Shown here in pieces: positions 8,383 to 11,736 of a stretch of DNA of 64,000 nt (position 1 is the first letter of the stretch; each line of letters begins with the position of its first letter). The notes under the pieces are model-generated. The model was not told the origin of the DNA, searched no databases, and worked only from the letters and a program-made list of their open reading frames with translations. Where the stretch lies: contig CBDDCX010000008.1 in assembly GCA_965226375.1 (NCBI GenBank), positions 416,001-480,000 of the forward strand. The letters run 5' to 3'. This DNA comes from Longimicrobiales bacterium (GTDB lineage Bacteria > Gemmatimonadota > Gemmatimonadetes > Longimicrobiales > Gaopeijiaceae). Made by a program: the position numbers and the translations under genes.

Positions 8383-8886
8383 GTGGACTTCGAGAAGACC
8401 TTCGACCAACTGCACCCGGCGCTGTTCCGGTACTGTCATCGCTTGACCGGTGACCCGGACGTGGCCGACGACGTGGCGCAGGAGGCTTTTGTCAGGCTGT
8501 ACGACCACAAGGTCGAAGGTGATGAGCGGGGTGTGCGTGCCTGGCTCTTCCGCACGGCCACGCACCTGGTGCGCGACCGTTACCGAGTGGACGAGAACCG
8601 GAGACGGCTTCTCGAGGCGAATCCGGTCCGACCGGCGTCCCTCGAGCAACCGGACCGAGAAATTCATAGAAGAGAAGACGTGGCAAGAGTACGGATGGCA
8701 CTGGAGGACCTGAGCGTGCGTGACCGGGCGATGTTGCTGGCACGATACGAAGGGTTCAGTTACCGCGAGATCGCCGAGGCGTTCGACGTGGCGCCGGGAT
8801 CGGTCGGGACGCTACTTGCTCGGGCTGAGAGGCGCTTTGTCAGCGCCTATGGGCCCGCTGAGGAGAACGATGACGCATCTGGATGA
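8383..8886 (+). CDS. ECF RNA polymerase sigma-70 factor
   Basis: Region 2 DDVAQEAF...AWLFRTA; region 4 YREIAEAFDVAPGSVGTLLARA. Confidence 0.93.
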   Translation: MDFEKTFDQLHPALFRYCHRLTGDPDVADDVAQEAFVRLYDHKVEGDERGVRAWLFRTATHLVRDRYRVDENRRRLLEANPVRPASLEQPDREIHRREDVARVRMALEDLSVRDRAMLLARYEGFSYREIAEAFDVAPGSVGTLLARAERRFVSAYGPAEENDDASG

Positions 8887-9721
8887 GGGACTGCTCCGCG
8901 CGCTGCTCGACGGCGAGACGGTCGACGGCGGCGAGGCTTCCGCCATAGGACATCTCGACGAGTGCGACCGCTGCCAGGCTCTCCTGGACGAGCTCCGCGA
9001 CGCCGGCTCCGTAGTCGGCACGGCTCTCGCGCATCTCGACACGGTTCCCGCACCGGTGGGCGCGAAGGCGGCGGTTCTCGCACAGGTGGGCTTTGACGTA
9101 CCGGATGCGACTCGCACACCGGATGCCGCGATTCCCCAGGACATCAGCCCGACCGCGCCGGCACGCCCAACGGGAGTCGCTCCCACGCTCACCGAGCGAT
9201 TCGCCTTCGCCCGTGCGGCCATCCTGGTGCTACTCCTGGGAGGTGTGGTGGCCACGGCCTTGCCGGCCTCGCCCTTGAGCGGGTGGATTGCCGGAGGCTG
9301 GGACCGCGCCGTGACACTCTTTACGGGGCCGACGCAGGCCGAAAGTGCCGCCACTCCGGCGGAGAGCACTCTCACCCCTCAGACCCCCGAATTCGCAGGA
9401 GTTAGTCTCGAGGTCGAAAGCGGAGAGCTCATTGTATTGCTTCTGGACATCGAGCCGGGGACCGAGCTGGATGTGCGCCTCGTGGACGGCTTCCAGGCCG
9501 CCGCGTTCGCGGCTCAGCCGGCGCGCTTTCGTACTGCCGAAGGGTTGATCGAGGTCACCGGTGGCTCCGGCCGAGTGCGCATAGACATCCCCCGATCCGT
9601 GGAAGTGGCATCAATCCACGTGAACGGACGTATGTACCTAACGAAGGCCGGGGACGAGTTGGACGTCGCAGGTCCGATCGTCACCCGAACGTCAGGCGAG
9701 ATTCGCCTGAGGGTCCAATAG
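8870..9721 (+). CDS. Zinc-binding (ZAS/zf-HC2) transmembrane anti-sigma factor
   Basis: HLDECDRC (HxxxCxxC), one TM helix, overlaps sigma stop; ATG after AGGAG. Confidence 0.85.
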   Translation: MTHLDEGLLRALLDGETVDGGEASAIGHLDECDRCQALLDELRDAGSVVGTALAHLDTVPAPVGAKAAVLAQVGFDVPDATRTPDAAIPQDISPTAPARPTGVAPTLTERFAFARAAILVLLLGGVVATALPASPLSGWIAGGWDRAVTLFTGPTQAESAATPAESTLTPQTPEFAGVSLEVESGELIVLLLDIEPGTELDVRLVDGFQAAAFAAQPARFRTAEGLIEVTGGSGRVRIDIPRSVEVASIHVNGRMYLTKAGDELDVAGPIVTRTSGEIRLRVQ

Positions 9722-9772: not shown

Positions 9773-10892
9773 ATGCCGCTCCACCTGACGCTCGCGACCG
9801 TGCTGTTGGCGGTTCAGGTCCCGACCCACGGGACGATCGAAGGCGTCGTGCGCGGATACGAGCAGACCTCCGGCAGGACCCTGGCTTTTGCCACGGTCGT
9901 AGCGGCGACTCCCGGAGGACACCGAACCGCTGCCGCCGACAGCCTGGGGCGATACCGCTTCGAGGACCTCCCGGCCGGACTCGTGCGACTGCGAATCAGT
10001 CATCCGGGGCATCGGTCGGCCCGTGTGGACGTCCAGGTACCGGCTGGTGGCACGGTCTCCCTCGATGTCGATTTGGAGCGACGACCGATCTTGCTGTCAC
10101 CCATCGAGGTGTTGGGTGACCCGGTTACACGGGGAAGGACGCCTGGTGCGGTCGACCCTCCCCTTGCCGACATCGAAGTGATCACCCTGGGTCTGAGCCC
10201 CGGGCTGGGCGAGTCGGGCCTCGGTGAAGCGGCGGCAACGCTGCCCGGAAACGATCCGGCAGATCCGACGGACGTTCTCTTCATGCGAGGCTCGACGACG
10301 GATCTGAAGCTCGTCCTTCTGGACGGGGCCCCCCGTCTACACGCCGTTCCATCTCGGAGGGCTGCTCAGCAGCTTCGACGCGTTCGCCCTTGGAGGGGCG
10401 GCGCTCCATGTGGGGGGCGCGCCTGCTCGTTACGACGGGGGGCTCTCCTACATACTGGACCTGCGCACCAGGACTCCCAGGAGGGACCGGTTGCGGGGAC
10501 GGGGGGGAATCGACCTGATCAGCGGGCAGGTGGCCCTGGAGGGGCCCATCGGTAACAAGGTCGGCTTCGCGGTCTCCACGCGGGCTCTGCACGATCTGGG
10601 TGCGAGCGTCTTGGGCAGCTCCCATAATCCGTACGGCTATCGTGATGCCCTCGGGAGGGTGGACGTCGAGCTTGGGAATGACCATCTGCTGAGCACGACG
10701 GCGTTCTGGAATCACGAGTCCGTCCGTCTCTCGGTGGACGGTGGGTCGGCAACGCCTAGCACACCTCTTCCGGGTCCGGAGGACGCCTCCCGGGGCAACC
10801 AGGCGCTGACGGTGGCCTACCGTGGGATTCTGGGTGACGTAACACTCGACGCGGCCGCTTCAGCCAGTGGCTACCAAGCGGACCTGCCCCTC
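9773..10892 (+). pseudogene. TonB-dependent receptor, frameshifted (C run 10329-10334) and truncated near 10890
   Basis: Plug motifs continue across frames (LLDGAP / VYTPFHLGG / GGAPARYDGGLS); barrel far too short and replaced by unrelated sequence. Confidence 0.75.
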
Positions 10893-11378
10893 GTGGCGCG
10901 CGAGAAGCTGGGTACGGTGCCGGCGGGACTGGTGCCTGCAGCCGGCAAGGTGCTTGTGCTCTCCGTGAGAGATCTGGCCAACCCGGATCTCGTCTGTGGT
11001 GGAGGAAACTGGAGCGACACATGCGCCAGCATGGTTGTGCTAGAACAGCCGGGGATCGATCCGGGGCGGCGTCCGGGAAGGGTTGAGCTGAGTCTGTTGA
11101 CCGGGCGACGGACCTGGTACCCGCAGGCCGATACGGTCACGCTGGCCGAGGCTCCTCCCCCTGGCTGACCCGTCACCCAAGTGGGCGGGTCCGCCCACCA
11201 GTGGACGGTGTTACTTGGCGACGACGTGAGGCCGGGTACGGATTTCGTGGTGCGATTGACGGTTGGGAAGGCCGGTGGGGCCCAGACCAGGGTCGGTTGG
11301 CAGCTCTCGATCGAGGATCCCGCGGTGGCCGCCGCGCCCGGTGTGGGTCACGACGACTGCGTGATGGAGATCAGCTAG
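10893..11378 (+). CDS. Candidate selenoprotein fragment (in-frame TGA 11166-11168), fused behind the TBDR remnant; own start missing
   Basis: Track ORFs 10410-11168 and 11181-11378 share one frame, interrupted only by TGA; SECIS-like hairpin follows. Confidence 0.5.
11169..11208 (+). promoter_or_regulatory. Putative bacterial SECIS element
   Basis: GTGGGCG-GGTC-CGCCCAC upper stem-loop plus lower stem CCGTC/GACGG; loop starts 19 nt after TGA. Confidence 0.55.
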
Positions 11379-11736
11379 GCTCCAGCCAGGTCGTATCACT
11401 TCCCAGGTTGATGGCCAGGTGCTCCCCCTCACCTCCGGGGGCAGCTCCGTGCCAATGCTCTTCCTCGGGATCGACGACTACCATGTCTCCCGGGAGGAGC
11501 TGAACCTCGGTGCCGTCGCGATTGACGACTACGCACGTGCCACTGAGGCCGAAGAGTATCTGGATATCGTCGTGGCGGTGCCAGTTCATGCGTGACCCCT
11601 CGCCGAACGTTACTCGATAGATCCGGATCGGCAGCTCATCGTCGCGACCGAGCAGCTTCTGCACGAACGCCGGAAGCACGAACGTGTTCTCGTCCGCACG
11701 GTTCCGGGGAAGGCTGGCGCCGTCGATCGCCTTCAT
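11371..11736 (-). CDS. Cupin domain protein
   Basis: NWHRH...Q and EEHWHGA cupin motifs. Confidence 0.88.
   Translation of the reverse strand: MKAIDGASLPRNRADENTFVLPAFVQKLLGRDDELPIRIYRVTFGEGSRMNWHRHDDIQILFGLSGTCVVVNRDGTEVQLLPGDMVVVDPEEEHWHGAAPGGEGEHLAINLGSDTTWLEPS

Follow-up and report, generated by a model that had tools for sequence, protein, structure and literature searches.

A probable selenocysteine codon in a rare family of predicted jelly-roll lipoproteins, represented in a Longimicrobiales genome by a 5'-deleted allele

Whether an in-frame TGA ends a protein or encodes selenocysteine (Sec) is the question raised by a reading frame in a 64,000-nucleotide stretch of DNA (the window) from a Longimicrobiales bacterium of the phylum Gemmatimonadota. 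The frame, at 10893–11378 on the forward strand, contains a single in-frame TGA at 11166–11168 (codon 92), after which 69 codons follow before a TAG. A preliminary description, made from the sequence alone, had proposed a selenoprotein of unrecognised family at this site, in which a hairpin just downstream directs Sec insertion at the UGA. The frame reads as it was quoted there, the approximately 70 codons past the TGA being 69; its start is not the GTG at 10893, for the open frame extends upstream as far as 10410, within part of a TonB-dependent receptor-like gene. Here we ask how the TGA is read, what became of the gene in the window, and what the intact protein might do.

The TGA and the hairpin in the window

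Two features of the frame bear directly on decoding:

11166–11168, forward strand: predicted selenocysteine codon TGA, with a Pro codon next to it, assigned from the codons and residues at this column in homologues.
11181–11198, forward strand: 7-bp upper stem of a bacterial SECIS element with a GGUC loop at 11188–11191, encoding VGGSAH and assigned from folding, codons and covariation.

The 7-bp stem and the GGUC loop, which begins 19 nt past the UGA, are present as first described, and the upper stem sits on a lower stem. This lower stem exists in the window, but the family consensus calculated with RNAalifold holds a 5-bp upper stem only. A 50-nt stretch containing the hairpin folds at −24.7 kcal/mol (z −2.64; 3 of 200 shuffles were equally good), and folding of longer or shorter stretches gives z values of only −1 to −1.9. 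Similar hairpins (GGUC loop, stem of at least 5 bp, 16–37 nt downstream) follow 130 of the 110,353 TGA triplets in the source genome. Four other GGUC hairpins with a 7-bp stem and 19-nt spacing occur in that genome, all within short non-coding frames. We considered a GGUC loop at 19 nt as a common SECIS type of the source genome and rejected it, the four other cases being out-of-frame chance matches and the selD loop being different. No Rfam model matched at an E value of 10 or better across 10800–11500, and the hairpin fits the consensus bSECIS model as given in the legend to Fig. 2A of PMC13188914. Taken on its own, the hairpin is rare, yet only suggestive and no proof of recoding.

Homologues retain TGA or Cys at the same column

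Protein or profile searches of whole genomes yielded 13 distinct genes (hereafter protein-found genes), of which 11 carry TGA at the column in question, one carries TGC and one is a fragment that does not reach it. The preliminary description had named other codons at this site, and loss of conservation downstream of it, as observations that would speak against Sec. None of the 13 protein-found genes has TAA, TAG or TGG at the column, and the protein is conserved past the TGA at about 30% identity. The protein-found TGA genes span 31–78% identity; four weak matches, three to the Pro-rich linker (E about 7e-4) and one without a stop (E 9e-4), were left uncounted.

The protein databases give the same picture from annotated sequences. 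A first search returned 11 proteins that end exactly at the TGA, 10 of them in PPPG and one in APG. Together with two wider searches, 58 database proteins were gathered, of which 53 match the family profile; five long or repetitive matches (P0025, P0029, P0030, P0038 and P0044) do not match it and were dropped, and P0063, which had clustered with a C-terminal piece, is unrelated to the family. Of the 53 homologues, 36 stop at the TGA column and 11 continue through it; five consist of a C-terminal piece alone, and one is truncated in another way. The residue at the Sec column of the 11 continuous homologues is Cys in five (P0014, P0015, P0020, P0023 and P0039; the DNA of P0015, at locus L048, reads TGC), His in three and another residue in two, with Cys one column off in the last.

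Additionally, the GTDB collection was scanned for a DNA pattern in which TGA is combined with a Pro codon and the core of the hairpin; the pattern matched 21 stretches, every one of them encoding a member of this selenolipoprotein family. The pattern adds 13 genes, for 24 distinct TGA genes in all; these 13 were selected on TGA and hairpin and are thus no evidence for either. By record titles, they belong to Chloroflexota, Actinomycetota, Dormiibacterota, a delta proteobacterium, Kiloniellales and Gammaproteobacteria. The Kiloniellales and Gammaproteobacteria genes group with Acidimicrobiia on the tree, so that binning or transfer is possible for them. Pattern-seeded scans for loci, run with single proteins, gave no match in genome or metagenome contigs.

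Pro directly follows the TGA in all 24 genes, including 11 of 11 in the set that was not selected on Pro, and the residue before Sec is G, S, A, T or F. The conserved motif is therefore Sec-Pro, in place of the Gly-Sec motif first suggested.

The hairpin is conserved as RNA

Codon choice in the hairpin was compared in 10 protein-found genes. All nine that encode GGSA use the same four codons for it, for which codon usage predicts a share of about 1% per gene, and the codons flanking GGSA vary synonymously. The Cys gene L048 has other codons at the hairpin, and its core folds at only −3.6 kcal/mol. In an alignment of the hairpin from 24 genes, 13 of them selected on the hairpin pattern, pairing is 89% in register versus 42–56% in slid controls. 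Pairs 19–30 and 20–29 of this alignment (A4) are altered on both sides in L053 and L061, where the amino acids differ and pairing is retained; the two-sided changes amount to 3 cells, a value reached in 1 of 500 shuffles and resting on these two sequences. The covariation that had been proposed as a check on the hairpin is hence present as compensatory changes in two sequences. The 48-nt minimum-energy fold favours another pairing in several genes. Together, the codon and pairing patterns indicate that the hairpin is constrained at the RNA level in Sec genes. The mechanism would be the same as in-frame-SECIS Sec decoding in bacteria, as set out in the parts of the literature covered here, but with a hairpin core unusually frozen in sequence across phyla.

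A different reading of these alignments is that the TGA is a true stop, with a second gene restarting at a GTG 12 nt downstream, or that it is read as Trp. Codon +5 is indeed GTG in 23 of the 24 genes and ATG in the other, and gene callers report C-terminal open reading frames (P0013, P0035, P0043 and P0058). However, this GTG is part of the hairpin stem; of the two pieces, the downstream one would be without an export signal, and the upstream one is missing three core strands of the predicted fold (see below). In the spacer, the amino acids are conserved and their codons vary synonymously, Pro being encoded by all four codons; moreover, 11 homologues are continuous, the residue aligned with the TGA may be Cys but is never Trp, and the Trp conserved at position +12 is encoded by TGG in all 10 genes compared. 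We therefore consider a stop with restart, or Trp, very improbable.

Selenocysteine machinery and distribution of the family

The source genome encodes tRNA-Sec(TCA) (selC), selA, selB and selD, the complete set that the preliminary description had proposed looking for; its selD carries its own in-frame TGA. With TGA or Cys kept in homologues, compensatory changes in the hairpin and this machinery in the genome, the comparison strongly supports the original proposal that the UGA at 11166–11168 encodes Sec: SelB with Sec-tRNA would bind the GGUC hairpin, and the codon would almost certainly be read as Sec.

Among 24 other carrier genomes, 21 have selA. It was not found in carriers G408, G658 and G665, of which G408 has selB and tRNA-Sec and G665 has tRNA-Sec; none of the searched Sec components was found in G658. 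Within the host family, co-occurrence is hardly informative, because 247 of the 314 genomes have selA. The selenolipoprotein family itself is rare, with carriers making up 9 of the 314 host-family genomes, 3 of 401 genomes sampled from the phylum (one of them a weak match) and 2 of 301 sampled from the class of G663. A tree, calculated without the partial L033 and L022 and with L053 on a long branch, splits subgroup A (Gemmatimonadota, including the window gene) from subgroup B (mixed phyla) with support of 97/92.

Some genomes carry two copies of the gene. G621 has a Cys form (L048) and a Sec form (L055) on separate contigs. Two tandem Sec-bearing paralogues, L049/L077 (G530:C125:4607-5967), lie divergent from DUF1326 and a PpoB2-family gene, the second paralogue having a frameshift in its 5' part. 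A near-identical pair, L029/L030, is found in a genome titled Proteobacteria in which no Sec genes were found and which is possibly mis-binned.

The window holds a 5'-deleted allele

The window copy is incomplete, as becomes clear from its surroundings:

8383–9721, forward strand: ECF sigma factor gene and probable anti-sigma gene, upstream of the receptor fragment (Sigma70_r2 and r4_2; weak zf-HC2).
9773–10891, forward strand: 5' fragment of a TonB-dependent receptor-like gene, with a carboxypeptidase-regulatory-like domain first (PF13620, E 2.7e-14) and without the 3' half.
10890–10891, forward strand: deletion junction (2-nt microhomology) at which the receptor fragment runs in frame into the selenoprotein gene, located with contigs of public runs.
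10890–11378, forward strand: 3' three-quarters of the selenolipoprotein gene (intact residues 68 onward), from identity to P0002 and to the gene in G402.

Over 92 aa the window copy is 100% identical to P0002, a protein that starts with a lipoprotein signal, and it shares 78% DNA identity with the intact gene in G402. Missing from it are the signal peptide, the lipobox Cys, the Pro-rich linker and the first beta-strand; residues 1–68 of P0002 gave no tblastn match in the source genome. The neighbouring gene is labelled a putative TonB receptor from its domain layout and a reading of its sequence, with no barrel-domain match. Its fragment has a +1 frameshift near 10329, and the copy in G402 runs about 390 residues beyond the junction. 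In G402 and G401, this receptor-like gene is also split into at least two frames (L087:1022-3291; L088:4951-6764), and it may be decaying across the genus, or the splits may be assembly indel errors. Both genomes are syntenic with the window (ECF sigma, anti-sigma, receptor) up to about 10892–10905, and synteny resumes at about 11370; neither has the selenoprotein gene at this locus, the intact copy of G402 lying 740 kb away. The ECF sigma and anti-sigma genes are context only, with no link to the family elsewhere.

We checked the junction in contigs of four runs from four studies (X1, X3, X4 and X9), one of which may be the source of the window. One X4 contig bridges the junction, covering 10769–11171 with more than 100 bases on each side; contigs of X1 and X3 reach it from both sides; in X9 it is absent, and the receptor continues past 10891. 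The extra base near 10329 is kept in X1, X3 and X4 and lacking in X9. Additionally, X1, X3 and X9 contain an intact lipoprotein 5' half, matching P0002, as a loose end at 10890; an intact 5' half exists in related populations.

The junction might be thought an assembly chimera, its overlap being only 2 nt, or else the fusion a new functional gene, being in frame and called as a protein in three assemblies (P0003, P0061 and P0062). The bridging contig from another study and the frameshift common to three runs show, however, that the junction is no assembly error; the fused frame, moreover, is downstream of the frameshift and lacks a signal peptide. Either version of this explanation thus seems improbable. 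The window allele is instead a real 5'-deletion remnant, fused to a frameshifted receptor gene, and very likely non-functional: its frame has neither a start of its own nor a signal peptide, and it is probably a pseudogene. The deletion had been overlooked in the preliminary description, whose codon assignment stands for a gene that in the window is probably dead. The broken allele is a small example of selenoprotein gene loss within a population, and, with the window copy decapitated, the biology of interest lies in intact alleles.

Further broken copies were observed elsewhere: L054 (G541:C4:32465-32752) is a 5' fragment only, and in L033 and L038 the 5' part of the gene and the part bearing Sec are in different frames, so that gene loss may be frequent. 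The source genome also has, on a 59-kb contig (C2:1703-3908), 17 tRNA genes in 2.2 kb, resembling the tRNA arrays of mobile elements.

Intact members are predicted jelly-roll lipoproteins

At about 200–230 aa in total, an intact member begins with a hydrophobic signal that includes a lipobox Cys; a Pro-rich linker then leads into a single domain of about 170–180 aa. A simple lipobox pattern is found in 35 of the 53 database homologues, many of the others being fragments. This architecture, supported by comparison, predicts that the intact product is exported and anchored to the membrane by lipid, with the domain held on its Pro-rich linker. The domain was also observed at the C-terminus of two longer lipoproteins, P0042 (473 aa), which has Ser at the Sec column, and P0055 (386 aa), which stops there.

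AlphaFold models of one member from each subgroup, with pLDDT values of 89.3 and 96.5, are both all-beta. Comparison supports a predicted jelly-roll beta-sandwich with Sec at the start of a strand. In both models, three long strands are encoded 3' of the UGA, so that termination at the UGA would leave the fold incomplete. Two Cys-containing features of the domain are retained in the window copy:

10995–11024, forward strand: C-x8-C pair, both Cys at least 90% conserved in alignment A3 and also retained by members that have neither Sec nor Cys at the Sec column.
11358–11360, forward strand: C-terminal Cys (H-D-D-C) in a low-confidence tail, a candidate resolving Cys or metal ligand from the tail-Cys pattern described below.

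The C-x8-C pair had been placed alongside Sec in the preliminary description. The pair is present, but lies 48 residues before Sec, and because members without Sec or Cys keep it, it is probably a structural disulfide and no partner of Sec. The tail that carries the C-terminal Cys has a pLDDT of 56–62 and ends in a beta-bridge in the model.

The structural neighbours of the models are generic jelly-roll domains, with best Z scores of 6.7 and 7.2 that are tied with unrelated entries. The P-domains of furin, Kex2 and KP-43, the C1 region of TPP II, carbohydrate-binding modules and GOLD domains resemble the family in their beta-sandwich arrangement. In the best alignment (Z 7.2), rmsd is 3.4–4.0 over about 110 aligned residues at 5–14% identity; scores at the level of this common arrangement allow no function to be transferred. 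Foldseek gave no match at E 0.001 or better for the models of both subgroups, and PDB sequences gave no match, the best E value being 0.13. For two natural homologues, the ESM Atlas returned no usable match (three unnamed clusters at 0.76–0.77), a blank that signifies neither novelty nor absence.

Comparison with known selenoproteins

No Pfam or NCBIfam model (June 2026) matches any of 54 members at E < 0.01. Thioredoxin-like selenoproteins differ from it in motif and fold, the alignments containing no UxxC/CxxU motif and the models being all-beta without a thioredoxin fold. Listed selenoproteins with Pro near Sec, namely SaoX (NF040735, UxP) and PrdC form 2 (TIGR04481, UPGQ), have models that match no member, and the same holds for DUF1573 (PF07610, UGC) and DUF3179 (PF11376, UxxC/T). 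Exported or all-beta domains occur among these four.

Known bacterial selenoproteins are mostly thioredoxin-like or occur in known redox enzymes, according to the portions of PMC13188914 covered here. Its catalogue of 119 families or subfamilies (Table 1) has no fitting row and no jelly-roll lipoprotein among the rows covered, and those portions nowhere use the words lipoprotein, periplasm or Gemmatimonad. The family shares with catalogued prokaryotic selenoprotein families, to the extent that these were covered, a single Sec, Cys homologues and truncation at the UGA. It is not described in the parts of BSepDB (PMC13326102) and deep-Sep (PMC12013277) covered. No description was found in the published literature covered, whose supplements might still contain one, and the portion of the Actinomarina preprint covered reports many unnamed selenoprotein candidates. 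The selenoprotein family is probably uncatalogued.

On balance, we favour with moderate confidence a selenoprotein family of exported jelly-roll lipoproteins, with a fold not yet linked to selenium, that has moved between Gemmatimonadota, Actinomycetota, Chloroflexota and other groups, with a frozen SECIS and with Sec, Cys and His interchanging at one site. The decoding mechanism would be ordinary, and what we infer about function comes from residue patterns. A beta-sandwich protein that bears an export signal and occurs naturally in Sec, Cys and His forms would point to a wider use of selenium; these forms would be a ready comparison set, made by nature, in which the contribution of selenium outside the cytoplasm could be tested. 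Recognition of the family also corrects an annotation error, affecting the 36 database homologues that stop at the UGA and the five orphan back halves.

Possible roles of the selenocysteine

If the family is as predicted, it could be a new class of cell-surface selenoenzyme or of selenolate metal-capture protein. In the first case, Sec would act as a redox-active nucleophile on an extracytoplasmic substrate; in subgroup A, to which the window gene belongs, the tail Cys would resolve oxidised Sec as a selenenylsulfide, and subgroup B would work with Sec alone. A Cys in the C-terminal tail accompanies Cys at the Sec column in all 5 such members and is absent from the 5 that have neither Cys nor Sec there; among Sec members, 7 of 9 in subgroup A have the tail Cys and 0 of 13 in subgroup B. 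This distribution is consistent with a resolving Cys that is dispensable for Sec enzymes, a part of the redox reading with less support, the related sequences not being independent and the pattern reflecting few events. Cys forms of thiol and selenol oxidoreductases generally keep a second Cys, which Sec forms may lack. A natural Sec enzyme without a resolving Cys is the 1-Cys type MsrA of Clostridium oremlandii, as described in the part of PMC4479559 covered. The analogy of the family with MsrA and glutathione peroxidase-like enzymes concerns how they work, namely an optional resolving Cys, whereas fold and sequence are unrelated. Fold searches returned no jelly-roll thiol oxidoreductase (best Z 6.7–7.2, generic), and the neighbours at 19 loci include no conserved redox partner. 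The whole chain, from Sec decoding through an exported jelly-roll lipoprotein to a redox-active Sec with a resolving tail Cys in subgroup A, is a tentative proposal to which we give slightly less than even chances.

The three subgroup-B members with His at the Sec column fit a metal ligand better than a nucleophile. Sec could accordingly be a ligand of a soft metal (Cu(I), Hg, Ag or Zn) in an exported scavenging or buffering lipoprotein, the site being completed by His or Cys from nearby loops in subgroup B or from the C-terminal tail in subgroup A. G-F-H and U-P-H are retained in the Sec members of subgroup B, as is the His of C-x-x-x-H-P-x-S-G-C, and the three members with His at the column (P0031, P0048 and P0049) have Asp replacing the loop His. 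Subgroup-A tails often end in H-x(1-2)-C, and the two tails without Cys are His-rich. At two of 19 loci the gene adjoins DUF1326, in one case together with a gene of the PpoB2 'copper chaperone' family, and the portions of PMC13188914 covered mention Sec as a possible metal ligand in SaoB, SaoC and UXX-star proteins. Nevertheless, the His residues of the presumed site are not common to both subgroups, metal transport or resistance genes are not conserved neighbours, and metal-binding jelly-roll proteins match only at background level (PHM, Z 4.8; CorA, E 0.013). A metal site appears the main alternative to the redox role, though a rather unlikely one.

A non-catalytic Sec, forming a structural Se–S bridge to the tail Cys or tuning a carbohydrate-binding-like ligand surface, would suit the best structural neighbours, which are non-catalytic (protease P-domains, carbohydrate-binding modules and GOLD domains), and the five members that do without Cys or Sec at the column. 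However, none of the 13 subgroup-B Sec members has a partner Cys, and Sec is nonetheless retained, with a SECIS frozen across phyla; a bridge of purely structural function would leave this unexplained. We judge a non-catalytic role to be less probable than a metal site, at under one chance in five.

No conserved neighbour gene was found in 19 loci of up to 13 kb, in which 44 flanking proteins were scanned against Pfam. In three of these loci, tRNA genes lie beside family genes (tRNA-Gly, L062:6383-6455; tRNA-Ser, L067:3761-3847; tRNA-Ala, L076:6539-6612), possible integration sites that would be in line with sporadic transfer. In one Acidimicrobiia genome (L071:6868-11441), the family gene is directly downstream, on the same strand, of an ergothioneine-type cluster with a His methyltransferase gene and FGE-sulfatase/DinB genes, an arrangement not observed at the other loci.
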